DNA of 64,000 bases from NCBI GenBank assembly GCA_017524845.1, contig JAFXUU010000118.1, positions 101-64,100 on the forward strand. Direction: 5' to 3'. The DNA is from Oscillospiraceae bacterium. Lineage in GTDB: Bacteria; Bacillota; Clostridia; Oscillospirales; Oscillospiraceae. How positions within the stretch are numbered: position 1 is the first letter of the stretch; every line of letters starts with the position of its first letter. Positions 5,586 through 51,147 of this stretch are shown here, in pieces. The position numbers and the translations under genes were made by a program. Under the pieces are notes generated by a model that did no database searches, was not told the origin of the DNA, and worked only from the letters and a program-made list of their open reading frames with translations.

Positions 5586-6653
5586 TTATCCCCGGTATTC
5601 CCGATACCATTCGGCGAAGCGCCGCAGTCCCTCCCGGATGCCCACGGAGGGGCGGAAGCCGTAGTCCCGCTCCAGGCCGCTGCTGTCCGCGTAGGTGACG
5701 GGCACGTCCCCCGGCTGCATGCCCACCAGCTCCCGGTGGCCTTCGAAGTCGTAGTCCGCCGGGAGGACCCCGGCGCGCACCAGCTCCTCCTGGAGGACGG
5801 CCACGAAATCCAGCAGGTTCTCCGGGGCGCCGCCGCCGATGTTGTAGACCGCATAGGGCGGGAGGGGCAGCCCGTCCTCCCCCCGGGAGCGCTCCGGCGC
5901 GCCCTTCATCACCCGGAGGACGCCCTCCACGATGTCGTCCACGTAGGTGAAGTCGCGCATGCAGTTGCCGTAGTTGAAGATCTGTATCGTCTTTCCCGCC
6001 GCCAGCTTCTCCGTGGCGCTGTAGTAGAACATGTCCGGCCGCCCGGCGGGACCGTAGACGGTGAAGAAGCGCAGGCCGGTGACGGGGATGTCGTAGAGCT
6101 TGGCGTAGCTGTGGGCCAGGAGCTCGTCGGCCTTCTTCGTGGCGGCGTAGAGGCTCACGGGGCTGTCCACCCGGTCCTCCGTGGAGAAGGGCACCTTTTT
6201 GTTGCCCCCGTAGACGGAGGAGGAGGAAGCGTAGACCAGGTGCTCCGCGCCGTGGTGACGGCAGGCCTCCAGAATGTTGAAGAAGCCGACGATGTTGGCC
6301 TCGATGTAGGCGTCGGGATGGTCGATGCTGTAGCGCACCCCCGCCTGGGCGGCCAGATTCACCGTCACCGCCGGGGCGTATTCCCCGTAGACCCGCTCCA
6401 CCAGCGCCCGGTCCGCGATGGAGCCCCGGACGAACACGTGCTTCACCGGGGATTCCGCCGCGGCCCTTTCGATGAGCCCCAGTCGGTATTCCTTCAGGGC
6501 CGGATCGTAGTAGTCGTTCATGCTGTCCAGGCTGACCACGGTCCCGCCTTCCATCTCCCGCAGCAGCCGCAGCACCAGATTGGCCCCGATGAAGCCGGGG
6601 GAGCCGGTGACGAGGACGGTCTTCCCCTTCAGCTCGACCTTCGATTTGCCCAT
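5586..6653 (-). CDS. NAD-dependent epimerase/dehydratase, UDP-glucuronate 4-epimerase-like
   Basis: Rossmann motif VLVTGSPGFIGANL. SDR catalytic region SSSSVYG...YAATKKADELLAHSY. GGAGGGA RBS. Starts 4 nt after the ugd stop. Confidence 0.85.
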   Translation of the reverse strand: MGKSKVELKGKTVLVTGSPGFIGANLVLRLLREMEGGTVVSLDSMNDYYDPALKEYRLGLIERAAAESPVKHVFVRGSIADRALVERVYGEYAPAVTVNLAAQAGVRYSIDHPDAYIEANIVGFFNILEACRHHGAEHLVYASSSSVYGGNKKVPFSTEDRVDSPVSLYAATKKADELLAHSYAKLYDIPVTGLRFFTVYGPAGRPDMFYYSATEKLAAGKTIQIFNYGNCMRDFTYVDDIVEGVLRVMKGAPERSRGEDGLPLPPYAVYNIGGGAPENLLDFVAVLQEELVRAGVLPADYDFEGHRELVGMQPGDVPVTYADSSGLERDYGFRPSVGIREGLRRFAEWYREYRG

Positions 6654-6657
6654 GGCC

Positions 6658-7881
6658 TCAGTCCCTCCGGAACAGGTCGCGGGTGTAGACCTTGTCCCTG
6701 ACGTCCTCCAGCGCGGCCGGATCGAAGCGGTTGGCCAGGATCACGTCGCTCTCCCGCTTGAAGCGCGCCAGATCGTTCACGACGCGGGAGCGGAAGAACT
6801 CGGAGCCGTCCTCCAGGGTGGGCTCGTAGATGATGATGGGGATGCCCTTGGCCTTGATGCGCTTCATCACGCCCTGGATCGCGGAGGAGCGGAAGTTGTC
6901 GGAATTGCTCTTCATGGTCAGCCGGTAGACGCCCACGGTGCCGGGGTTGCGGGCGATGATCTGATCCGCGATGAAATCCTTGCGGACGCTGTTGCTCTTG
7001 ACCACCGCCTCGATCATGGTCTGGGGCACGTCCCGGTAGTTGGCCAGGAGCTGCTTCGTGTCCTTGGGCAGACAGTAGCCCCCGTAGCCGAAGGAGGGGT
7101 TGTTGTAGTGCCCGCCGATGCGGGGATCCAGGCACACGCCGTCGATGATCATCTGCGTGTCCAGCCCCTTGGTCTGGGCGTAGGTGTCCAGCTCGTTGAA
7201 GTAGCTGACGCGCACGGCCAGATAGGTGTTGGCGAAGAGCTTGATGGCCTCCGCCTCGGTGAGGTGCGTCAGAAGGATCGGGATATCCTGGGGGGCCTGC
7301 CCGCTCCGTTCCTCCTCCGCTCTCACGCCCTCCGCCAGCAGGTCGGCGAACATCCGCGCCTCCTCCTTCTGGTCGTCGTCGCCGCCCACCACGATGCGGG
7401 AGGGATGCAGGTTGTCGTACAGGGCCTTGGACTCCCGCAGGAACTCCGGGCTGAACAGGATGTTCCGGACGCCGTACTTCGCCCGGACGGATGCCGTGTA
7501 GCCCACGGGGATCGTGGACTTGATCACCATCAGGACGCTGGGATTGACCTTCAGCGTCCATTCGATGGCGTCCTCCACGGCGGAGGTGTCGAAGAACTGA
7601 TTGACGTCGTCGTAATTCGTGGGCGTGGCGATGATCACCAGCTCCGCGCCGCCGTAGGCGGCCGCCTTGTCGGTGGTGGTATGCAGGTTCAGGGTCCGCT
7701 TTCCCTCCCGGGCTTCCCGGAAGAAGCGCTCGATCTCGTCGTCCTGGATGGGACTGACGAAGCGGTTGAGCTGCTCCGCCTTCTTCTCCGTCGTGGTGAT
7801 GGCGGTAACTTCATGCTTCTGCGCCAGAAGGACGGCCAGAGAAAGGCCGACGTAGCCGACGCCTGCGACAGTGATCTTCAT
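6658..7881 (-). CDS. ugd: UDP-glucose 6-dehydrogenase
   Basis: [17 protein letters not shown] fold and catalytic [24 protein letters not shown] before ATG 7881. The track ORF extends to 7962 without support. Confidence 0.9.
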
Positions 7882-13525: not shown

Positions 13526-13774
13526 CGCGCTTGGCTTCCCCTCCGGGGAAGCTGTCGCCGAAGGCGACTGATGAGGTGAAGCGCGCGCGTCTCTCCGGCA
13601 GAGCCGGAGAAATAGGCCCCTGCTTCTCCCGCCATCCTCTGCGCGCCGCCTCTCATCCGTCAGCCGCCTGACGGCGTCTGCCGCCTTCCCCCAGGGGAAG
13701 GCATGTCGGTCCCGGCGGAAGCGAAACCCCGCCGCAGCGGAATTAAAAACTGTCCCCGAAGGGGACACCGCAAT

Positions 13775-13871: not shown

Positions 13872-14768
13872 TCAGTGCCTGCCCAGGGTGATGAACACGG
13901 AGGGGCCGGTCACGTTGCGGTAGGTGAGGGGAAGGTGCGGGGTGCCCTTGGTCATGGCCATGACGGTGGCCTTGGTGAGGATACAGTGCTCCTGCTCCTC
14001 CCCGTCCGCGCCGACGCAGTAATCCGCCTCGCAGTGGAGGTCGGTGAGGTTATCCAGGTCCATGCTCAGGAAGATGAGGGCCTCGTCGTAATCCTCGTGG
14101 GCGTGGGGGTGGTGCTTCCCGTCGGGTCCCCAGGGCCCCAGGTTGTGATCCCGGCAGACGGTGGACCAGGCCATGGTCACGTCCAGGCCGGAGAGGTCGC
14201 TGCCGAAATAGGTGGAGTAGCCCCCGGAGGGCTGGCTCCGCTCGGAGCCGTAATGGTAGGGATCGTTGGCGGAGAACTTCAGGGCCTGCACGTTGCGCAT
14301 GAAGGGGCCGAAGAAGCGGCTCCAGGGGCCGGAGGCCGGCTGGAGGCTTTCGTTCGCGACGGCGGCGGCCAGCTTTCCGGTGAGGTTGACGGACACGAAG
14401 AAGAAGGGGCGGTCCGCCTTCAGAACGATGGGGGAGAAGTGGGGCATGCCCTTGGGGATCACCACGGCATGGGGGATGGCGATGCGGTGCCGCACGGCCT
14501 CCTCGCCCAGGTCCACCTCCAGCTCCGCGCCCAGATGCAGCATGTCCTCCGCGTCGGCGCTGAGGAACCAGAGGAGCTGATCGTAGTCGTGGGTGTGCTG
14601 CTTTTCGGTCTCCTCCGGGATCATGCCGGGGCCGTCCACCAGGCAGTAGCGCAGGGAGAAGCTGTCCCAGCCGAAGAAATCCTCCTCCATGAGGGACCAG
14701 AGCTTTACGTTGCCGTTCCGCCCCCGGATGGGGATCTCCTTCCGGAGATCCGCGTATTTTCCGCTCAT
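13872..14768 (-). CDS. double cupin-like hypothetical protein
   Basis: Two halves, each with an H-x-H...D(E/Y)...(L/I)F(L)...beta-barrel pattern (QHTHDYDQLLWFL; HPHAHEDYDEALIFL). GGAGG RBS. Lies 92 nt downstream of the NifK-like gene. Confidence 0.7.
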   Translation of the reverse strand: MSGKYADLRKEIPIRGRNGNVKLWSLMEEDFFGWDSFSLRYCLVDGPGMIPEETEKQHTHDYDQLLWFLSADAEDMLHLGAELEVDLGEEAVRHRIAIPHAVVIPKGMPHFSPIVLKADRPFFFVSVNLTGKLAAAVANESLQPASGPWSRFFGPFMRNVQALKFSANDPYHYGSERSQPSGGYSTYFGSDLSGLDVTMAWSTVCRDHNLGPWGPDGKHHPHAHEDYDEALIFLSMDLDNLTDLHCEADYCVGADGEEQEHCILTKATVMAMTKGTPHLPLTYRNVTGPSVFITLGRH

Positions 14769-14859
14769 ATTAACCTCCGTTCCGGCCCGGGTCTCCGGGC
14801 CTCGTTTTTTTCAATCATAGCAGGATCGCAGACTGCGGGCAACAGGGAAAACGCAGCTC

Positions 14860-16203
14860 TCAGATCCGGGACATGAGGCCGTTGACGGTCTGCTCCGTGA
14901 GGAATTGGGCCCCCGTCAGCCCAAGGTGGGTCTTGGGGACGATGTCCACGTAGCCCATGCCGGGGAGGCTGATCTCGATGCCGCTGAAGGCGTCGTTCCT
15001 GGTCATGAGGGCGGCGATGGTGTTGGCGTCGGCGTACACCAGCTCGGCGGAGGTATCCAGGATGTCCTTCGTTTCCGCGTCCCCGGCCCCCAGGGAGCGC
15101 AGGAGGGCGCGGAGCTTTTCCCGGCATTCCGGGACGGGGCTCCCGTTCAGGGAAACGCAGTCCGGCGTCATGCCCAGGTAATCCGTGAGGAAGCGGGTAT
15201 AGGCCCACACGGCGGAATCCGGCCCCTCCACGGCGAAGGCCAGGCGGGAGGAGAGGAAATTCTGCTGATCCAGGCCCCGGAGCTTGAACCAGCATTCCGC
15301 CCGCTTCCGCTCGCTCTCCTCCAGCACCGGGTCGGGGGAGACGTCCAGCCGGGCGCAGACCGCGCGGATCATCTCCTCCGTGGCGGCGAAGCCCACGGGG
15401 GGGCCGTCCAGGGTCAGGCAGGGGGTGCCGAAGCGCTTTTCCAGCAGGGCGGCGGTCTCCCGGCCCATCTCGGGGTAGAGCAGGAGGTTCAGGTCCGCCT
15501 CCGGCAGGGAGAAGATGTCCTCCACGGTGCTGTCGGCGCAGAGACAGCAGCCCACCCGGATGCCGCAGGCCTCCAGCAGCCGCGTCAGCTCCGCCTTGTC
15601 CCCGTCCCAGTAGCGCTGCCACACGGAGAGGCCCAGGAGGTTCACCCGGGGCTGCGCGCCGGGCTTCGGGCCGGGGGAAAAGCGGTCCGGCAGCTGGCGC
15701 AGGATCTCCGCGGCGGCCCGGTCGTAGCCGTCGGCGTAGTGCTCGGAGTAGCCGGGGGATTCCAGCACCGCCGTGGGCTTCCCCGGCAGGACCCGGGCCG
15801 CCAGCTCCTTCAGCTCGTCCCCGATGAGGGAGGCGCCGGGGGAATCCACGATCACCAGCAGGTCGAAGCGGAACTTTTCCCCGAAATAGCGCATGGCGGC
15901 CTCCGCCTTCTCCGCCGTGCCGTAGACGTAGTCGTCCCCGTCCAGCCAGGTGCAGGGCACCCGGGGCTGGCGGAAGAACCAGTTGTTGAGGATGTCGTAT
16001 TCCACCTGCCCCTTCTCCGCGCTGCGCCCGGCGGCGTCCCGCAGGGGCGAATGCTTCGTCAGGAAGGCGGAGGTGGTGCTGTGGTAGAATTTGCAGCCCA
16101 TGGGGCCGTTGAGCAGCACGATGACGTTTTTGATGCCCTCGGCGGCGAAGATCATGCCGGTGATGCTGTCAGGCGAAATACTTTTCGAAGAGAGCTTCGT
16201 CAT
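14860..16203 (-). CDS. nitrogenase component-1-type oxidoreductase, NifK/NifN-like subunit
   Basis: Blocks [17 protein letters not shown] and [16 protein letters not shown] align with NifK/N/BchB-type motifs. The start overlaps the upstream ORF by 35 nt. An alternative ATG is at 16155. Confidence 0.8.
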
Positions 16204-18406
16204 CTCTCCATGCGCCTCCTTTTCCTTGGCGTTTTCCCAGCTTCTCCCGCTCCCGCAGCAGGGCCGCCCAGCGCTCCAGCACCGGGATGGCCGAGCCGAA
16301 GAGGGCCAGGGGCGAGGAGGGCACGGCGTCCGTGAGCAGGCCCTCGGCCGCCTCCCCTCCGGCGTAGTTCGTGAGGAGCAGGTCCGGCTTCAGGGCCTGC
16401 ACCTTCTCCCGGATGCGCCCGGCCGAGCTGACCTCCTCCGTCACGGCCAGGACCTCCGGGTCCCGGCTCACCCGCAGGGGGGTGCGCAGATAGTTCATGA
16501 CGCCGATCCACCCCAGGCGCATGCCCGCGTCCCGGGCCGCGCCGATGAGCCAGTCCACGTCGTCGTTGATGGTGGTAAGGGCCAGGGTCTTCCCCTCCAG
16601 AGCGGGCCGCAGGGCGTTTACGGCCGCGCGGTAGTCCGCCATCTCCCGGGCGATCAGGGCCTCCGCCCGCTCCCGGCAGCCGTAGAATTCCGCCAGCTCC
16701 GTGAGCCAGGCCGCGGTGGCCGCCGGGCCCACGGGCAGGGGCCGGGGATGGAAGCGGCAGCCGTAGCGCTCCGTGAGCCAGTCCCGCAGGGCCAGGTTGT
16801 CCGCGCTCTCGGAATCCAGGATGTTCAGGGGGGCCTTCAGGAAGCCCCGCAGCTCCTCGCAGGTGGCGTCCCCCAGCAGGCGGCAGTTCAGCCGGAGGCC
16901 CATGGCCTCCAGCAGCCGCCGGAGGGAGCGGACGTTGGGCTCGTTGTTGTAGGAGATGGCCAGCTCACCCACCAGGTTCACGCAGTCGCTCTCCGGCTTT
17001 GCGTCCCGGTCGATGAGCTTTTCGCAGAGGATGTGGAGGCAGTCCCGGATGCCGGCGGAATAGTCCCCGGTGATGTCCCCGTCGGCGGGGACGGCGATCA
17101 CCGGCGTTTCCGGCGTGGACAGGGCCTCCAGGGAGCGGATGTCGTCCCCGATGATGCCGCTGACGCAGCTGGAGATCACCACCACCGCCCCCGGTTTCCG
17201 GGCCACGGCCTCCGATACCTGGGCGCGCAGCTTTTCCATGCCGCCGAAGACCGCCTCGGCGTGGGTCATGTCGCTGCACTCGAAATGGGGGCTGATGGCC
17301 GAGGGCATGAGGATGCCCCGGTTGAAGAGGTTTTTCCGCCCGGGGGAGGAGATGTTCTGCCAGGTGTAGAAGGCGCAGGCCCGGGGGCTGTGGGCGATGA
17401 CCAGGGCGTCCGTCAGGTGCACGGCGGCGGTGGCCGCCCCGTTGAAGGCGCAGCCGTAGAGGGGCGGGCGGCTGAGGGCGCTTCCCGCCTTCCCGGCGGG
17501 CTGGGGCGCAGCGCTTCCCGCCGCCGCGGCCACAGCCTTCGCCGTCTCCCGCGCTTTCGGCGCGGACGGGCGCAGCTCCGTGCCCAGCACCAGGCTCTCC
17601 AGCGCCTCGTCCGTGAGGGGGCGGGCGGGATAGAGGGCCGGGCCCCGGAGGACGTGCTGCGCCAGGCCGGAAAACACGGCCTTTTCCTCCCCGCAGCCGG
17701 GGAGCTCCATCAGCGTGCGCCGGGCCTCCTCCGCCTGGGAGAAGGCGTCGGAGCGGGGCACGTCGGCCACGATGGGGAGGCCCGCGGCCTCCGCGAAGCG
17801 GCGCACCCGCCCCTCCTCGTCGGTGAGGCTGCGCCGGTTGAGGATGATGCCCGCCACCCGGGCGTGCTCGTCCCCGTCGAAATTGCGGATGCCCCGCAGG
17901 ATGTTGTTGGCGGCGTAGATGGCCATGTATTCCCCGCTGGTGACGAGGAAGATGGCGTCGGCGTATTCCCGCCGCACGGGGACGGCGAAGCCGCCGCAGA
18001 CCACGTCTCCCAGCACGTCGTAGATCACGAGGCCGTAGCGCTCCTTCACTCCGTGCCTGTCCAGGAACTCGAAGGCGGTGATGATGCCCCGCCCGGCGCA
18101 GCCCACGCCGGGCCTGGGGCCGCCCGCCTCGATGCAGCCGATGCCGAAGGCCCCCTCCCGGAGGACCTCGGCCGGGTCGGCCGCCGCCGCGTCCCTGCCC
18201 CGGAGGTAGTCCAGCACCGTGGGGATCAGCTCCCCGTGGGTGAGCAGACGGGTGGAATCGTGCTTCGGGTCGCAGCCGATCTGCAGCACCCGGCTCCCCG
18301 CCATGGCCAGCGCGGCGGAGAGGTTGGCGCTGACGGTGCTCTTGCCGATGCCGCCCTTGCCGTAGACCGCGATCTCCAGCGGCTGCGGCGTCTTGATTTT
18401 TTCCAT
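16169..18406 (-). CDS. fusion protein: NifH/BchL/CfbC-type Fe-protein ATPase plus NifD/NifE-type component-1 subunit (745 aa)
   Basis: NifH-type motifs: [11 protein letters not shown]-loop, [16 protein letters not shown] and GDVVCGGF cluster ligands. An Ala/Pro linker follows. NifD/E-type motifs: [33 protein letters not shown] 18406 has a GAGAAGGGA RBS; the track start 18475 is unsupported. Confidence 0.85.
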
Positions 18407-18465
18407 AGGCGTATCCCTTCTCCCGGCGGACCACCGGGGTTTTATGCTCCAGCTCCCGAATATTG

Positions 18466-18494
18466 ATTCTACCACGGAACCGGCGCGATGGAAA
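18466..18494 (-). promoter_or_regulatory. promoter candidate for the nitrogenase-like operon
   Basis: Minus strand: TTTCCA, 17 nt, TGgTAGAAT (extended -10), about 55 nt upstream of ATG 18406. Confidence 0.4.
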
Positions 18495-20211: not shown

Positions 20212-20457
20212 TTATGCGCCGGTGCGGTTCCTGCGGAAGGACACCGGCGGGAAGACGACCTCCTCCCCGCAGACGGGGCATTTCAGGCTGCTGGGGCCGT
20301 GGCTCCCCCGGTAGAGGATCTCCACCTTGTGGTCGCAGAAGGGACAGATCCGCGCCAGGGTGTACTGGCCGCAGCACTGCTCCCTCAGCCGGCTCTGCTC
20401 CTCCATGGCCCGGGCGTATCGGGCCGGGTCCTGCTCTTTTGCGTTGTATTTCGGCAT
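20212..20457 (-). CDS. small zinc-ribbon protein (81 aa)
   Basis: MPKYNAKEQ... with CPFC-x22-CPVC. Not listed separately in the track; it is the 3' part of a longer shadow-extended ORF. The start overlaps the ImmA-like gene end by 73 nt. Confidence 0.5.
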   Translation of the reverse strand: MPKYNAKEQDPARYARAMEEQSRLREQCCGQYTLARICPFCDHKVEILYRGSHGPSSLKCPVCGEEVVFPPVSFRRNRTGA

Positions 20458-21137
20458 GCGTTTCCCTCCAGAACGGCGTAGTCTTCCTCGTCCATGAGGA
20501 CGTCGGGCGGGGAACGGCGGCCGGGCTCCCGCACTGAAAGACCCAGCTGCTTCAGCCGGATGCCCAGAGCCTGCCGGGAGACCCCCAGGGCCTCCGCCAG
20601 AGCGCCGAAGCGGCCCCAGCTCTCCGGGTCCAGCCGCGGGTCCAGGTACTGCCGGGGCGCGGGAAAGCCGAATTCCGGCAGCCGCCGGGCCAGCAGGGGC
20701 CTGGGCATCAGCAGGGCGGCGGCCAGGGCGTCCGCCCGCCGCTCCTCCGCCCGGCAGAGGCAGGACCGGGCCGGGCCCGTCTCCGGGCGTCGGCGGGCGA
20801 GCAGCAGATGGCTCACCTCGTGCATCAGGGTGAAGCGGCAGCGGCCGGGACTGGCCCAGGGGGAGAAAAGCGCCGGGTCCAGCAGGACGGTGCGCCCGTC
20901 CAGGTAGTAGTGGCAGAGCTGCCCGGCGTAGTTCCACACGGGGACGCCCACGGGCGACGCCGCCGTGAGCCCCAGCAGGGCCCCGCCGGGGCTGAGGCGG
21001 CGGCAGACGATCCGCAGCCCCAGCAGCTCCCGGGCCAGCCTTTCCGGCTCCACCCGGCCCTCCGGGATCCCGGGCAGGGCCAGATAGGCCCGGTAGACCT
21101 CCTCCGCCAGGCGCTCCAGCGCCTCCCGTTCCTCCAT
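20385..21137 (-). CDS. ImmA/IrrE-family zinc metallopeptidase
   Basis: HEXXH motif in FTLMHEVSHLLL. C-terminal HTH-like LAEALGVSRQALGIRLKQLG. ATG 21137 (MEEREALERL). Confidence 0.75.
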   Translation of the reverse strand: MEEREALERLAEEVYRAYLALPGIPEGRVEPERLARELLGLRIVCRRLSPGGALLGLTAASPVGVPVWNYAGQLCHYYLDGRTVLLDPALFSPWASPGRCRFTLMHEVSHLLLARRRPETGPARSCLCRAEERRADALAAALLMPRPLLARRLPEFGFPAPRQYLDPRLDPESWGRFGALAEALGVSRQALGIRLKQLGLSVREPGRRSPPDVLMDEEDYAVLEGNACRNTTQKSRTRPDTPGPWRSRAG

Positions 21138-21173
21138 CCGTTTCGACCTCCGTTCCCTTGCTGCCCAAGAATA

Positions 21174-21222
21174 GCACCCCTGATACGGGTTGTAAATACC
21201 GCATTTGCACCCCTGATAAGGG
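21174..21222. promoter_or_regulatory. direct 16-bp repeat in the divergent control region (candidate operator pair)
   Basis: GCACCCCTGATACGGG (21174-21189) and GCACCCCTGATAAGGG (21207-21222), 33 bp apart, abut the -35 of the repressor promoter. Confidence 0.45.
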
Positions 21223-21232
21223 CGGTTCTTCC

Positions 21233-21262
21233 TTGACAGGGCCGCGCCCGGCGGAGTATAAT
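21233..21262 (+). promoter_or_regulatory. consensus promoter for the S24-repressor gene
   Basis: TTGACA, 18 nt, TATAAT, 34 nt before ATG 21296. Confidence 0.6.
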
Positions 21263-21295
21263 CCTTCAAAGAAAGCAGCGGAAGGAGAGCGCGCG

Positions 21296-22105
21296 ATGGC
21301 AGGGCAGGGAAAAAAGACGCCGGAGCGTCTGTATCCGGGGGATTACGACGCCGGGGCGGCGGCCGCCGCCAACACCGTGGGCCGCCGTCTGGCGGAGGGC
21401 CGGCGGCGGCTGGGGCTGAACCAGGCGGCCTTCGCCCGGCGTCTGGGGGAGCTGGGGGTGGAGATCGGCCTCCGGGGCTACGCCAAGTGGGAAACGGGGG
21501 AAACGGTGCCGGGGGCCTATCAGCTGCTGGCCGCCGCCCGGCTCCTGGGGGAGGATTCCCTGGATTATTTCACCGGGGCCGCGCCGGAGCTCAACGAAGA
21601 GGGGCTCCGCCGCCTGCGGGACTACCGGGAGGACCTGGTGGCCTCCGGGCGCTATCGGCCTTTCCCGGCGGCGAAGGAGGCCGTCCCCCTGCGGGAGATG
21701 CTCTTCAGCCGCCTCCGGCCCTCCGCCGGGCCGGGGAACACGCTGGACGAGGAATTTTTCGAAAAGCGCCTCTTCCCGGCGGACGCCGTGCCCCCCGGGG
21801 CGGATTTCGCCGTCTGCGTGGACGGGGACAGCATGGAGCCCGTCTACCGGGACGGGCAGCTGGTGTGGGTGCAGCGCTGCGCCCGCCTCCGCCCGGGGGA
21901 AACGGGCCTCGTCTGCTACGACGGCAGCAGCTACGTCAAGGTCTACGGGGAGCGGGAGCCCCCCGCCGGGCTCCGGCCGCTGTTCACGGATTCCGAGGGC
22001 GTCGTCTATCCCCAGCCGGTGCTGATCTCCTGCAACCGGGAGAAATACCCGCCCGTGCCCGTCCATCCGGAAAAGGGCTTCGCCGTGGTGGGCCGGGTGC
22101 TGTGA
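21296..22105 (+). CDS. CI/LexA-like repressor: XRE HTH plus S24 self-cleaving peptidase domain
   Basis: HTH region RRLAEGRRRLGLNQAAFARRLG. S24 Ser motif VDGDSMEPVYRDGQLVWV and the downstream Lys in SSYVKVYGE. GGAAGGAGAG RBS. Confidence 0.85.
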   Translation: MAGQGKKTPERLYPGDYDAGAAAAANTVGRRLAEGRRRLGLNQAAFARRLGELGVEIGLRGYAKWETGETVPGAYQLLAAARLLGEDSLDYFTGAAPELNEEGLRRLRDYREDLVASGRYRPFPAAKEAVPLREMLFSRLRPSAGPGNTLDEEFFEKRLFPADAVPPGADFAVCVDGDSMEPVYRDGQLVWVQRCARLRPGETGLVCYDGSSYVKVYGEREPPAGLRPLFTDSEGVVYPQPVLISCNREKYPPVPVHPEKGFAVVGRVL

Positions 22106-22275
22106 AACCGTGGTCATCCTGCACAGAGGAGAAGCCCGGCGGGGGAAATAACTGTGCCATTTCCCGGAAAATGAAATTGATACTTCCGTTTTGCGCGTTT
22201 TCAGAGTAGAATATCCGATATTCATTGCCGGGACCCGGCGGCCGCCGCCGGGGCATATGGGAGCCTAGAGAGAAA

Positions 22276-23544
22276 ATGTCAGCAGAATTCACCAAAGAAA
22301 TGAAGCGCGGCTACACCATCATCGCGCCGGATATGTTCCCCACCCACATGGAGCTGCTCCAGGCCATTTTCCGCCTCAGCGGCTACAACGTGGAGGTGGT
22401 GCGCTACGAGGGGAAAAAGGTCATCGACACGGGCCTGAAATACCTGCACAACGACGTGTGCTATCCCGCCGTCTGCGCCCTGGGCCAGCAGATCTACGCC
22501 CTCACCTGCGGGGACTACGATCCCCGGAGAAGCGCCCTCATCATGTTCCAGACCGGGGGCGGCTGCCGGGCCTCCAACTACATCATGCTTCTTCGCAAGG
22601 CCCTGGAGAACATGGACATGGGCTACGTGCCCGTCATCTCCCTGAGCCTGGGGGGCGTGGAGAAGTCCTCCGGCTTCCGCTTCACCCCCTTCATGCTTCT
22701 GGCGGGCATCCGGGCCGTCCTCTACGGGGACATGCTCCTCCTGCTGAAGAACCAGACCCTGCCCTACGAGGTGAACCCCGGGGACACGGAGGCCGTGGTG
22801 AAGAAGTGGATCGGCCGGCTGACGGAGCAGTTTGCCCGCCGCCGGGGCCTGAGCGGCCGGGCCGTGCGCCGGAATCTCCGGGCCATGGCGGAGGATTTCC
22901 ACCGCATTCCCCGGGAAAAGCGGGAGGTCACCAAGGTGGGCATCGTGGGGGAGATCTACGTGAAATACGCCGCCTTCGGCAACAACGGGCTGGAGCGCTT
23001 CCTGCTGAGCCAGGGCTGCGAGGTCATGGTCCCCGGCGCCCTGGGCTTCTTCCAGTACTGCTTTGCCAACATGGAGACGGACCACGCCTACTACGGCGCG
23101 CCCCGGCGGAACGTCTGGGCGGGGAACCTGGCCCTGCGCATCTCCGAGCGCTGGGAGAAGGAGATGCTGAAGGCCCTGGAGGACTATCCCGAATTCGTGC
23201 CCCCCGTCTCCTTCGACCGGGTGAAGGAGCTGGCCGACGAGGTCATCGACCGGGGCGTGAAGATGGGGGAGGGCTGGCTCCTGCCGGGGGAAACGGCGGC
23301 CCTCATCGAAAAGGGCTATACCAGCGTCGTCTGCGCCCAGCCCTTCGGCTGCCTGCCCAACCACATCGTGGGCAAGGGCACCGTGCGGCGGCTGCGGGAG
23401 AAGTATCCGCGGGCCAACATCTTCCCCGTGGACTACGACGCCGGGGCCTCCCGGGTCAATCAGGAAAACCGGATCAAGCTGATGCTGGCCATCGCCAGGG
23501 ACGGGGAAGCCTTCCCCGCCGGGGCGGCGGCCGGGACTACATAA
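22276..23544 (+). CDS. 2-hydroxyacyl-CoA dehydratase / BcrC-BadD-HgdB-family subunit-like protein
   Basis: YTIIAPDMFPTHMELLQAIF...NDVCYPAVCALGQ...FQTGGGCRASNY...VVCAQPFGCLPNH is typical of proteins paired with BcrAD/BadFG activases. Confidence 0.7.
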   Translation: MSAEFTKEMKRGYTIIAPDMFPTHMELLQAIFRLSGYNVEVVRYEGKKVIDTGLKYLHNDVCYPAVCALGQQIYALTCGDYDPRRSALIMFQTGGGCRASNYIMLLRKALENMDMGYVPVISLSLGGVEKSSGFRFTPFMLLAGIRAVLYGDMLLLLKNQTLPYEVNPGDTEAVVKKWIGRLTEQFARRRGLSGRAVRRNLRAMAEDFHRIPREKREVTKVGIVGEIYVKYAAFGNNGLERFLLSQGCEVMVPGALGFFQYCFANMETDHAYYGAPRRNVWAGNLALRISERWEKEMLKALEDYPEFVPPVSFDRVKELADEVIDRGVKMGEGWLLPGETAALIEKGYTSVVCAQPFGCLPNHIVGKGTVRRLREKYPRANIFPVDYDAGASRVNQENRIKLMLAIARDGEAFPAGAAAGTT

Positions 23545-23555
23545 AGGGATATCGC

Positions 23556-26495
23556 ATGATGAAACTTGGCATCGACGTCGGGTCCACCACCCTCAAGTGC
23601 GCCGTACTGGATGAAAACGGCGCGCTTCTGTATTCCGAATACATGCGCCACTATTCCCGCATCGCGGAGAACCTGGGGCAGATGCTGGGCAGGCTGGCGG
23701 AGCGCTTCCCCGGGGAAGAACCGGCCCTGTCCCTCTCCGGCTCCGCGGGGATGGGGCTGGCGGACGAGCTGGGCCTCCCCTTCGTGCAGGAGGTCTACGC
23801 GGAGCGCGTCGCCGTGCGGAGGCTCATGCCGGGGACGGACGTGGTCGTGGAGCTGGGCGGGTAGGACGCGAAGATCCTCTTCCTCACCGGCGGCTTCGAG
23901 ATGCGAATGAACGGCACCTGCGCCGGGGGCACCGGCGCCTTCATCGACCAGATGGCCTCCCTGATGCAGGTCTCCGCCGAGGAACTGAACGCCCTGGCGG
24001 AGAAGAAGGAAAAGCTCTATACCATCGCCTCCCGCTGCGGCGTCTTCGCGAAGTCCGACGTGCAGCCCCTGCTGAACCAGGGGGCGCGGAAGGAGGACGT
24101 GGCCGCCAGCATCTTCTACGCCGTGGTGAACCAGACCGTGGCCGGTCTGGCCCAGGGCCGGGAATTCAAGGGGAACATCCTCTATCTGGGCGGGCCCCTC
24201 ACCTTCCTGGGCGCCCTGCGCGCCGCCTTCGACGACGTGCTGGACACCGTCGGCGTCTGCCCGGAAAACTCCCTTTACTACGTGGCCATGGGGGCCGCTA
24301 TGGCGGGGGTGGGCACGGCCCGGAGCCTCCCGGCCCTCATCGAGCGGCTGAAAAAGGGCACCGGCAGCGGCAATTACGTGGCCTGCGAGCCGCTTTTCAC
24401 CTCGGAGGAGGAATACGCCGCCTTCCTTCGGCGGCACCGCCGCGCCTCCGAGGGGATCGTCGAGATCCCGGCCCCCGACGGCCCCATGTACCTGGGGGTG
24501 GACGCGGGCTCCACCACGGTGAAGGCCGTCCTCTGCGACGGCGAGGGCCGCCTCTTCCGCCCCTTCTACGCCTCCAACCACGGGAATCCCGTGCCCCTGA
24601 TCCGGGGCTATCTGGAGGCGCTCTACCGGGATTTCCCGGCGATCGACATCGCCGGGAGCGCCGTCACCGGCTACGGGGAGGAGATCATCAAGGCCGCCTT
24701 CCGCCTGGACCGGGGCCTGGTGGAGACCGTGGCCCACTACACCGCGGCGAAGCGTTTCCGGCCCGACGTGGACTTCATCCTGGACATCGGCGGCCAGGAC
24801 ATCAAGTGCTTCCAGATCCGGGGCGGGGCCATCGACAACATCTTCCTCAACGAAGCCTGCTCCTCCGGCTGCGGCTCCTTCCTGCAGACCTTCGCCGAGG
24901 CCCTGGGCTATACCGTGGAGGAATTTGCCCGCCTGGGCCTCTGCGCGAAGAAGCCCGTGGACCTGGGCTCCCGCTGCACCGTCTTCATGAACAGCTCCGT
25001 GAAGCAGGCCCAGAAGGACGGGGCCACCGTGGAGGATATCGCGGCGGGCCTCTCCATCAGCGTGGTGAAAAACGCCCTGTACAAGGTCATCCGCTGCGCG
25101 AGCGGAGACCGGCTGGGCAAAAGCATCGTGGTGCAGGGCGGCACCTTCCTGAACGACGCCGTGCTCCGGGCCTTCGAGCGGGAGACGGGGGCGGAGGTCA
25201 TCCGCCCGGCCTTCGCCCCCCTCATGGGAGCCTACGGCGCGGCCCTCCACGCCCTCAGCCGGGGGCGGGACGGGAGCCTGCCCGGGGTGCTGAAGGCCCC
25301 GGAGCTCATGGCCTTCACCCATAAGGTCGCCGCCGTCTCCTGTCAGGGCTGCACCAACCGCTGCAGCCTCACGGTCAACGATTTCGGCGACGGGCGGCGC
25401 TACGTGGCGGGCAACCGCTGCGAGCGCCCCGTGAGCGGGAAAAAGGGCGGGGAGGCCCGCAATCTCTACGACTATAAGCTCAGCCTCCTCTCCGCCTGCA
25501 TGAAAAACGAGCGGGAGCCCGGGAAGCGCACCGTGGGCCTCCCCATGGGCCTGAATTTCTACGACCTGCTGCCCTTCTGGCACGCCTTCTGGAAGGCCCT
25601 GGGCTTCAACGTGCTGGTAAGCCCCCTCTCCACCCGGGACCTCTACCTCAGAGGCCAGCATACCATCCCCTCCGACACGGTCTGCTACCCGGCCAAGCTC
25701 ATGCACGGGCATATGGAATGGCTCCTGGAGCAGAAGCCGGACGCGGTGTTCTACCCCAACATGAGCTACAACACCGAGGAGGGCCTGGGGGTCAACCACT
25801 TCAACTGCCCCGTGGTGGCCTACTATCCCCAGGTGCTGAAGATGAACATGCCCAACCTGCGCGACGCGGTCTTCATCGACGATTTCGTCAGCGTGGCGGA
25901 GGAAAAGCAGTTCGTCCGCCGCATGGGGGAGATCCTGCGGAAGACCTGGCCGGACCTGGACCGGAAGCGGATCAAAGCCGCCGCCGGGGAGGCCTACAGG
26001 GCCTACGGGGAATACTTCGCGGCCCTGCGGGCGAAGGGGGAGGAATACCTCCGCTCCGCCCGGGCCGAGGGGAAGCCGGTGATCGTCCTTGCCGGCCGCC
26101 CCTACCACGCGGACCCGGAGATCAACCACGGCATCCACGAGCTCATCGGCCGCCTGGGGGCCGCCGTGATCACGGAGGACAGCGTCAGCCATCTGGTGGA
26201 GCCCTTCCCCGTGGCCGTGCGCAACCAGTGGACCTACCACGCCCGCCTCTACGCGGCGGCGAAGTGGGTGGCCGCCGCGGATCCCGACGTGAACCTGGTG
26301 CAGCTGGTGTCCTTCGGCTGCGGGGTGGACGCCATCACCACCGACGAGGTGCGGTCCATCCTGGAGCGGGCGGGGAAGATCTACACCCAGATCAAGATCG
26401 ACGAGATCTCCAATATGGGCGCGGTGAACATCCGCCTGCGGAGCCTTTTCTCCGCCGTGGAGGATAAGGCGAGGGCGGCGAAGGCCGAAGGATGA
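23556..26495 (+). pseudogene. activase-type protein (two BcrAD/BadFG ATPase domains plus a C-terminal dehydratase-like domain), a single 979-codon frame interrupted by an in-frame TAG at 23862-23864
   Basis: Fragments 23556-23864 (MMKLGIDVGSTTLKCAV...VVELGG*) and 23901-26495 are in the same frame. The stop sits where the second domain has IGGQDIK. Downstream motifs are MNGTCAGGTGAFID, GVDAGSTTVKAV and LNEACSSGCGSFL. Confidence 0.8.
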
Positions 26496-50583: not shown

Positions 50584-51147
50584 TTACTTCTTCCAGGCGT
50601 CGTCCTGCCAGTCGGCCTCCATGCAGGCGCGGCAGGAATCGCACTTCTTGCCGGGGAAGAGCTTGCACTGGATGGGGCCGTTGTACCACATCTCGCGGCT
50701 GCCGCCGGGGAAGTCGTAGATGCCGCCGAACATGCCCTGCATCAGGGCGGCCTGGAAGAACACGGGCTTGTTGATCTCCATGAAGTTCAGGGGACAGTGA
50801 TAGACGCCGGCGGGGACCCGGATGATGGTGGGCTCCTCGATGACGAAGGTCTCGGCGTCCTTGCCGATCTCGCCCAGGGTGAACTCGATGTGGGCGTCGA
50901 AATCGAAGAGGTTGGGGAAGGAGCCGCCCAGGAAGATCAGGTACTCGTCCACCTTGTGGCGATGGGGGAACCGGTCGAGGAAGAAGGGCTTTACGAAGAT
51001 CTGGAAGCCCACGTTGTACTGGGCGCCGGGGAGCTGGCAGGCGCCGCGGAAATAGGCCTGGGGGGATACGACGAAATCGGCGTCGGCGTTTTCGGGCTTG
51101 GCCTCGTTGTATTCGGGCTCGAACTTGTGGATCAGCTTCTCGTACAT
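50584..51147 (-). CDS. single cupin-like protein with a C-terminal four-Cys cluster, related to the 13872 gene
   Basis: FPHRHKVDEYLIFLGG...IIRVPAGVYHCPLNF, then CKLFPGKKCDSCRAC. ATG 51147 has an AAAGGA RBS. Confidence 0.65.
   Translation of the reverse strand: MYEKLIHKFEPEYNEAKPENADADFVVSPQAYFRGACQLPGAQYNVGFQIFVKPFFLDRFPHRHKVDEYLIFLGGSFPNLFDFDAHIEFTLGEIGKDAETFVIEEPTIIRVPAGVYHCPLNFMEINKPVFFQAALMQGMFGGIYDFPGGSREMWYNGPIQCKLFPGKKCDSCRACMEADWQDDAWKK

Follow-up and report, generated by a model that had tools for sequence, protein, structure and literature searches.

A 64-kb window of contig JAFXUU010000118.1 from an Oscillospiraceae bacterium (coordinates below are positions in this window unless a related locus is named) carries two adjacent genes that probably form a self-contained, two-gene reductase of the nitrogen fixation-like (NFL) type in which the ATPase is tethered to one of the catalytic subunits. 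Three consecutive open reading frames (ORFs) lie on the minus strand at 16169-18406 (745 aa), 14860-16203 (447 aa) and 13872-14768 (298 aa). The first, here called HD, encodes a NifH-type module (H) joined to a NifD/E-type module (D), the second encodes a NifK/N-type subunit (K) and the third a protein with two cupin domains. The assignment of HD-K to the NFL systems is read from the sequence, in which a NifH-type ATPase with P-loop, switches and two Cys is accompanied by neighbouring alpha-type and beta-type subunits (PF00148 twice).

Matches to the NifH family (PF00142, aa 11-276) and to nitrogenase component 1 (PF00148, aa 319-714) lie in one frame of the first ORF. This is in agreement with the original prediction of a complete Fe-protein module fused to a D-type module, and every motif quoted there is present. 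Over its full length the H module can be aligned with NifH (9haz, 228 bits) and with MarH (9fmg_D, 227 bits), the identity of 9FMG as a methylthio-alkane reductase (MAR) having been checked and confirmed. In 169 fused proteins the residues K22, D46, D134, C103 and C137 of H are invariant or nearly so, C103 and C137 being the pair that in an Fe protein bridges a [4Fe-4S] cluster between the two H protomers. Translation of the 745-aa protein probably begins at an ATG preceded by a Shine-Dalgarno sequence (GGGAGAAGGG), which makes an upstream GTG at 18475 less likely as the start. No second copy of H, D or K is present within the window.

The Ala/Pro-rich linker that had been predicted between the modules is present, with a length of 37 aa (aa 276-312) rather than about 40, and it stops six residues ahead of the first D cluster ligand (Cys319). 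Linkers across the family range from 16 to 83 aa (median 34) and are rich in A, P, E, K and S; their column conservation (0.27) is lower than that of H (0.74) or D (0.61). AlphaFold2 assigns the linker a pLDDT of 31-37 and leaves aa 278-316 without secondary structure between two confident domains. The monomer model of HD as a whole has a pTM of 0.59 and yields no inter-domain geometry.

The fusion is found well beyond this contig. Among 5.8 billion proteins searched, at least 120 clusters match at 55-99% identity, all with PF00142 and PF00148 and nearly all of 727-793 aa, and a 99% identical fused protein (P0001) was found; the sources, where named, are Oscillospiraceae, Lachnospiraceae, Ruminococcus and Eubacteriales metagenome-assembled genomes (MAGs). 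An exhaustive HMMER search with the D module alone gave 1180 relatives, and 59 of 149 newly returned 50%-identity representatives carry an H module, with D identity down to ~25%. The fusion is common to at least 160 independent database proteins. A genome scan located 65 loci in species-representative genomes, which together with six fetched earlier make up the 71 related loci referred to below; the scanned loci sample only the PLYGCAFN / CAF[YF]TWQ clade, a very diverse D alignment having no conserved stretch. H is fused in frame in 67 of the 71, the exceptions being three that begin at a contig end and one (L064) that is frameshifted in the linker. A K partner is present in 68 of the 71, with the three misses at contig ends, and the K-type partner is thus obligatory. 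Its members are concentrated in MAGs from the gut and rumen of herbivores, and a Deltaproteobacteria-type occurrence is borne out in Desulfococcaceae MAGs.

It could be argued that an error of sequencing or assembly has joined ordinary nifH-like and nifD-like genes by masking a stop codon or frameshift between them, and the frameshifted L064 locus, together with a locus that has an in-frame TAG (L055), would fit such an origin. Set against this, the single-ORF form recurs in independent assemblies (at least 120 close clusters, and 59 representatives at greater distance); three of the four unfused loci are cut at a contig end; and linkers that differ in both length and sequence always keep the frame. 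On these comparative grounds an artefact is effectively excluded. The frameshift of L064 (~6520-6664, uncultured Clostridia MAG) falls inside the linker and the TAG of L055 (2342-2344, Ca. Apopatocola equi MAG) falls in the H module, not at a ligand position; both are probably MAG errors or pseudogenes. Selenocysteine at the L055 stop was considered and rejected, as the codon is TAG and lies in a variable loop.

Residue-level alignment to NifE and NifD places Cys319, Cys344 and Cys414 of the D module on alphaCys62, alphaCys88 and alphaCys154, and these residues are conserved in 96%, 100% and 99% of the 169 fused proteins. The position of alphaCys275 is without a Cys (Asp531/Ser532 here, with A, D, S or T commonest in the family). 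A ligand of the His442 type was not found in D either, H339 being its only invariant or near-invariant His and none being conserved in the C-terminal half. Because the Cys at alphaCys275 is missing and H339 is the sole conserved His, the D module is predicted to have no site for the iron-molybdenum cofactor (FeMo-co) or the L-cluster. Among solved structures, NifEN (98 bits), NifD (82-88 bits) and MarD (77 bits) stand at about the same distance from D.

The 14860-16203 ORF is of component-1 type, as had been predicted, and Cys37 is its one conserved ligand. At the remaining beta-Cys positions are Ser13 (the betaCys70 site; Ser or Gly) and Pro122 (the betaCys153 site), which is invariant in all 62 K partners aligned. 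Direct HMMER alignments of K to BchB, NifK and the MAR K-type chain begin after residue ~80 and hence profile-profile alignment was used. With hhalign against the D family, C37 of K falls opposite C344 of D (alphaCys88-type) and P122 opposite C414 (alphaCys154-type). That K Cys37 corresponds to BchB Asp36 is read from the xGPxG[C/D] motif and from alpha/beta pseudo-symmetry, not from a direct alignment. The best relatives of K in the PDB are the MAR K-type chain (9d9u_C, 74 bits) and ChlB (2ynm_D, 73 bits), rising to 112 and 109 bits respectively when the family profile is used.

Of the P-cluster Cys, then, three of three alpha positions and one of three beta positions are kept. Because this complement is asymmetric, with three Cys from D and one from K throughout the family, and because the FeMo-co Cys is missing, a single [4Fe-4S] cluster is favoured over a P-cluster. 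The pattern supports, at the level of sequence, an inter-subunit cluster like that of the dark-operative protochlorophyllide oxidoreductase (DPOR), and the four Cys stand where nitrogenase and DPOR carry their cluster between the subunits. The original prediction had read the asymmetry in the same way, and the ligand positions on which that reading depended have proved to be truly conserved.

The stop of HD and the start of K overlap by exactly the 35 nt originally counted. The ribosome-binding site and start of K are embedded in the codons of the HD C-terminal tail (16169-16223), which has the family consensus GGWxxDxxxFxKY with Trp733 invariant. An overlap of 35 nt is found in 6 of 7 loci for which gene calls were compared, and this recurrence suggests translational coupling that fixes the HD:K ratio.

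Placement against the curated NCBIfam models points to a distinct family, since all models for nitrogenase, DPOR, chlorophyllide a oxidoreductase (COR) and Cfb score below their cut-offs. For the fused protein the scores and cut-offs are 295/402 for CfbC, 292/394 for nifH, 210/345 for BchL, 121/505 for nifE and 103/654 for nifD. The scores and cut-offs for BchN and methan_mark_13 are 33/420 and 26.5/268. K scores 101 against the BchB model (cut-off 490), and TIGR01286 (nifK) is not among its matches; the fused protein itself scores 26.9 against that model (cut-off 427). A true nitrogenase (Nif/Vnf/Anf) was rejected on the missing alphaCys275 and alphaHis442, the one of three beta Cys and the missed nifH, nifD and nifK cut-offs, and a DPOR equivalog on the missed cut-offs for BchL, BchN and BchB. 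CfbCD (Ni-sirohydrochlorin a,c-diamide reductive cyclase) was rejected on the presence of two distinct PF00148 subunits, with CfbC and methan_mark_13 below cut-off. MAR was rejected on a K without two of the beta Cys, a D without the C275-type Cys and with only 77 bits to MarD, and no radical-SAM gene near, and isethionate reductase (ISR, IsrBHDK) on an opposite Cys pattern (three in D, one in K here) and no radical-SAM neighbour. The proteins do fall within the class of fused NifH-NifE-like proteins with NifN-like partners described by Dos Santos et al. (2012; PMC3464626). In a rough neighbour-joining tree of D modules, drawn with no bootstraps, fused forms dominate one large clade that includes a few unfused representatives, and a basal group lacks the fusion. 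The tree is consistent with an old fusion and with splits, or artefacts of gene calling, in occasional members.

A mechanism may be proposed in which two H modules dimerise around one [4Fe-4S] cluster and ATP binding docks the H dimer on the D/K interface. One electron per cycle would then pass to the single all-Cys [4Fe-4S] cluster between D and K, the geometry of which would be that of the NB-cluster of DPOR with Cys replacing Asp, and electrons would go on to an organic substrate in a pocket without a cofactor. As there is only one H protomer per DK unit, a single reductase dimer would have to serve two catalytic sites. The tether, fixed to the docking face of D, would keep the reductase nearby and stop it from diffusing away, and the shortest linkers (16-20 aa, at most ~60-70 A when extended) would imply docking near the D module of the same chain. 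It had been assumed in the original prediction that the reductase of characterised systems always dissociates, and this was already in question for CfbCD, as CfbC has been reported to stay in a persisting complex with CfbD (PMC13474568 section 61). A non-dissociating cycle is plausible in HD-K because CfbC stays bound in this way.

A variant was found in which tandem NifH-type modules are fused to a D module (H-H-D; P0222, L078:6001-9246, 1081 aa; ENA contig 143,712 bp). The gene sits in a cluster of Peripla_BP_2, two FecCD and an ABC ATPase, an importer of the iron-chelate/haem/B12 type. The downstream K-like gene is split into small ORFs, and assembly errors are possible. The variant shows that the D module needs a full H dimer and that there is another way to supply it.

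The third ORF has no match in Pfam or NCBIfam. Its AlphaFold2 model has a pLDDT of 94.2, and Foldseek matches it to the bicupins OxdC (oxalate decarboxylase), MncA and YxaG (quercetin dioxygenase) and to vicilins, with E ~1e-11 and TM 0.5-0.6. Conserved His/Glu sets occur in both barrels (H58, H60 and H110; H222, H224, E229 and H278). From the model, the product is predicted to be a true bicupin with two tandem cupin beta-barrels, as first proposed. Its relatives form 63 clusters (P0121-P0183), with Oscillospiraceae and Papillibacter as named sources, and, covered by neither a Pfam nor an NCBIfam model, are a candidate new cupin family. Elsewhere in the window, weak tblastn similarity to the N-terminal cupin (E 5e-5, 27% over 77 aa) at 50734-50964 on the minus strand probably marks another cupin-domain gene.

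The original prediction had further suggested that a substrate or product of HD-K may be acted on by the bicupin, which would make this a three-gene system. The gene lies on the same strand, its coding strand has no canonical terminator in the spacer, the same arrangement recurs in a 99%-identical genome of the same species, and in L009 a homologue lies ~4 kb from HD-K across four genes. That genome is the only other in which a bicupin directly follows K; the survey of relatives, which upheld the fusion, found a bicupin adjoining HD-K in none of the 71 loci. In L006, which is 79% identical, a DUF308 gene on the opposite strand fills the slot, and the two genes after it (168 and 212 aa) agree in size with the next two ORFs of the window. 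Of the four contexts in which bicupin homologues were placed, three (L010-L012) have no HD-K nearby. The spacer itself, measured at 91 nt rather than the 92 nt first given, holds a GC hairpin and a promoter-like site of its own, both overlooked when the interval was described as without a terminator. A three-gene system is therefore very improbable, and the bicupin is judged to be an unrelated, lineage-specific neighbour, not a conserved partner.

The substrate of HD-K was approached through gene context. Genes of the nifB/E/N/V, bch, cfb and mar types are absent within ~10 kb in the Pfam table of the 99%-identical genome, as the original prediction had stated for accessory genes, and none is conserved at the 71 loci: in all-vs-all clustering of their flanking ORFs no family exceeded 10 of 71. 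No radical-SAM gene recurs among these loci or lies near the window locus. The cysteine synthase A gene, cysK, adjoins HD-K in 6 of the 71 loci, with 379-456 bits against a curated cut-off of 351, where 0.3-1 loci would be expected by chance. These neighbours weakly suggest sulfur salvage. By analogy with MAR and ISR, the leading guess, made with low confidence, would be reductive C-S cleavage of a small organosulfur compound for sulfur salvage, ranked slightly ahead of tetrapyrrole or chelate reduction, which is itself of low confidence. In its full form the proposal is that HD-K may be a distinct NFL class, abundant in rumen and gut Clostridia and permanently tethered, that turns over without dissociation, uses one dimer for two sites and carries out a reaction new to NFLs, for instance the salvage of diet-derived organosulfur compounds; we put this forward tentatively, at rather less than even confidence.

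Several observations weigh against the sulfur-salvage reading or limit the mechanism proposed above. The six cysK loci perhaps represent ~three independent events (P ~0.004-0.07), and there is no cysK in the 64-kb window. No riboswitch or T-box was found upstream in a scan of the window and 16 diverse loci, and neither substrate class is supported by this. The cluster type is read from Cys positions only, and further ligands could come from Cys84 of K, which is 87% conserved, or from other residues. The similarity of K to ChlB of DPOR is as great as that to the MAR K-type chain, and the H-H-D variant lies in an importer cluster of the iron-chelate/haem/B12 type; these two findings point towards a tetrapyrrole or metal chelate instead. 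With the same tether and [4Fe-4S] relay, the substrate would then be a tetrapyrrole or other metal chelate, reduced at the ring as by DPOR, COR or CfbCD; candidates are an intermediate of a cofactor or, in the rumen or gut, derivatives of dietary chlorophyll or haem. We consider this rather unlikely. It would accommodate BchB/ChlB as being among the best curated-model and structural relatives of K, a 3+1 ligand geometry equal to that of the DPOR NB-cluster (PMC13474568 section 16), the importer genes around the H-H-D variant, the URO-D family genes near HD-K in L001 and L006 and the concentration of the family in herbivore gut and rumen MAGs. However, no tetrapyrrole biosynthesis gene recurs among the 71 loci, the URO-D neighbours, which may be methyltransferases, are confined to two loci, the L078 assembly has a fragmented K and looks prone to errors, and the curated cut-offs for DPOR, COR and Cfb are missed by wide margins. 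A third possibility, that HD-K is a cofactor-maturation scaffold resembling NifEN plus NifH and not a substrate reductase, would fit the best solved and curated relatives of the D module, NifEN and NifE. It is very improbable given the missing Cys at the alphaC275 position, which holds the L-cluster or FeMo-co, the lack of a conserved His in the C-terminal half and the lack of a nifB, nifDK or radical-SAM partner nearby.

Other features of the loci may be noted. The most frequent flanking family is MatE (10 of 71), which, like the recurring histidine kinase, ABC ATPase and Na/H antiporter, is of a generic kind; an M42 peptidase, an aldo-keto reductase with Fer4 domains and an old yellow enzyme (OYE)-type reductase also recur, as does cysK. 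The L004 cysK locus holds an Rrf2 regulator and AzlCD as well. URO-D family genes (uroporphyrinogen decarboxylase/methyltransferase) lie 0.3-2 kb downstream of HD-K at L001:13866-14918 and L006:6634-7632. In the window, a DUF2229 protein followed by a BcrAD_BadFG + DUF2229 protein is encoded at 22225-26495 on the plus strand, ~4 kb upstream of HD-K, the Pfam assignments being taken from the 99%-identical genome. This pair, of the type of the activase ATPases of benzoyl-CoA reductase and 2-hydroxyacyl-CoA dehydratase, would be a second ATP-dependent low-potential electron-transfer system nearby. Between the two, at 20385-22105, are a divergent M78 (ImmA/IrrE-like) peptidase and S24 (LexA-like) repressor with a small helix-turn-helix gene nearby. 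Such a regulatory module is typical of prophages and of integrative elements. An Rfam match to isrK at 21310-21369 on the minus strand is weak (27.9 bits against a gathering score of 50) and most likely due to chance.

Table 1. Positions of the features of the HD-K locus and of the cysK genes at related loci (positions prefixed L refer to those loci).
Feature	Position	Strand	Remarks
Promoter-like site, 5' of fused gene	18466..18494	-	Putative; TTTCCA-17-TAGAAT with TG extension; consensus scan, pattern match only
Fused HD gene	16169..18406	-	745 aa; NifH-type module, linker and NifD/E-type module in a single frame
H module, aa 11-275	17582..18376	-	PF00142, E 7e-88; P-loop K22, switch I D46, switch II D134
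H-module [4Fe-4S] ligands	Cys103 (18098-18100), Cys137 (17996-17998)	-	Motif/alignment; both conserved in 169/169
Flexible linker, aa 276-312	17471..17581	-	37 aa, Ala/Pro-rich; alignment and AlphaFold2
D module, aa 313-745 (component-1 alpha/NifE-like)	16172..17470	-	PF00148, E 7e-66; alignments to NifE and NifD
D cluster ligands (predicted)	Cys319 (17450-17452), Cys344 (17375-17377), Cys414 (17165-17167)	-	Residue-level alignment
HD stop/K start overlap	16169..16203	-	35 nt; K Shine-Dalgarno AAGGAGG inside last HD codons
K gene (component-1 beta/BchB-like)	14860..16203	-	447 aa; PF00148 at aa 16-369, E 3e-45
K cluster ligand Cys37 (predicted)	16093-16095	-	NGPMGC; single conserved ligand, 60/60
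Promoter-like site before bicupin gene	14814..14842	-	Putative; TTGCCC-17-TATGAT, TG; pattern match only
All-GC 7-bp hairpin in spacer	14784..14801		T-run only on + strand
Bicupin gene	13872..14768	-	298 aa; neighbour, judged outside the system
Terminator-like hairpin after bicupin gene	13751..13767	-	With T-run; sequence scan
cysK, directly after K	L038:10478-11461, L047:10497-11459		
cysK, upstream	L004:7869-8819, L006:2-562, L014:1-390		
cysK, divergent	L052:5851-6762		

The architecture is not a discovery: it has been known since 2012, and hundreds of such proteins are in databases. Dos Santos et al. (2012; BMC Genomics 13:162, PMC3464626) reported nifH-nifE-like fusions followed by nifN-like genes as "data not shown", left them out of their tree and assigned no function. 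A 'fused nifH/nifE' is also named for Ca. Methanomassiliicoccus intestinalis in a table of the Methanomassiliicoccales genome paper (PMC4153887). The words 'fusion' and 'fused' do not occur in a 2026 Chem Rev review of NFL systems (PMC13474568), and targeted literature searches found no biochemical study of the fused form. What is added here is the size and depth of the family, its centre in rumen and gut Clostridia, the family-wide ligand pattern and the linker statistics, as well as two leads, cysK and H-H-D, and the removal of the bicupin from the system.

Whether turnover in some NFL systems requires the Fe protein to dissociate is a question raised in the same review, which also counts functions for uncharacterised NFL clades among the greatest challenges of the field (PMC13474568 section 61). 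A natural covalent H-D tether and the H-H-D variant bear on the first question, and the fusion is an overlooked natural experiment on the need for dissociation. Its fixed 1:1 ratio of H to DK constrains stoichiometry, the linker is amenable to cutting or shortening, and hosts are available in culture (Acetitomaculum ruminis DSM 5522, Lachnospiraceae bacterium TWA4). In metagenomes from the rumen and gut of livestock the family is common, and its H module would be scored there as 'nifH' and inflate estimates of diazotrophs (compare PMC8597730).

Among known systems, the fusions of Dos Santos et al. have an identical gene architecture, including occurrence in Firmicutes. K keeps only the betaC95-type Cys, as PMC3464626 describes for related unfused clades of Firmicutes and Archaea, whereas the D module here keeps all three alpha-type Cys and the unfused 'red' clade of that study keeps two. 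ISR and MAR share with HD-K a possible sulfur-salvage role, which fits the cysK neighbours. IsrDK is a mirror image, however, with one Cys in D and three in K plus the radical-SAM protein IsrB (PMC11423573). Both are NFL enzymes of non-diazotrophic physiology; MarH is as close to H as NifH is, and no solved relative of K is closer than the MAR K-type chain. MAR (MarBHDK; 9FMG, 9D9U) differs in having a P-cluster and an L-type cluster and in requiring the radical-SAM protein MarB, none of which is seen here, and in HD-K the H protein is fused. The H module scores highest against the CfbC model (295 bits), and the catalytic component of CfbCD is [4Fe-4S]-only. CfbD, in contrast, is a homodimer of one subunit type where HD-K has two different component-1 subunits, the organisms here are bacterial and non-methanogenic, and the CfbC score is below the cut-off (402). 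In DPOR the reductase is a separate gene, and HD-K has no bch/chl context; the fourth ligand of the DPOR NB-cluster, beside three Cys, is Asp (PMC13474568 section 16), and would here be Cys. With DPOR, HD-K would share an ATP-dependent H-type reductase, a single inter-subunit [4Fe-4S] cluster held by three alpha-type Cys and one beta-type residue, a catalytic unit with no heterometal cofactor and a K subunit that resembles BchB.

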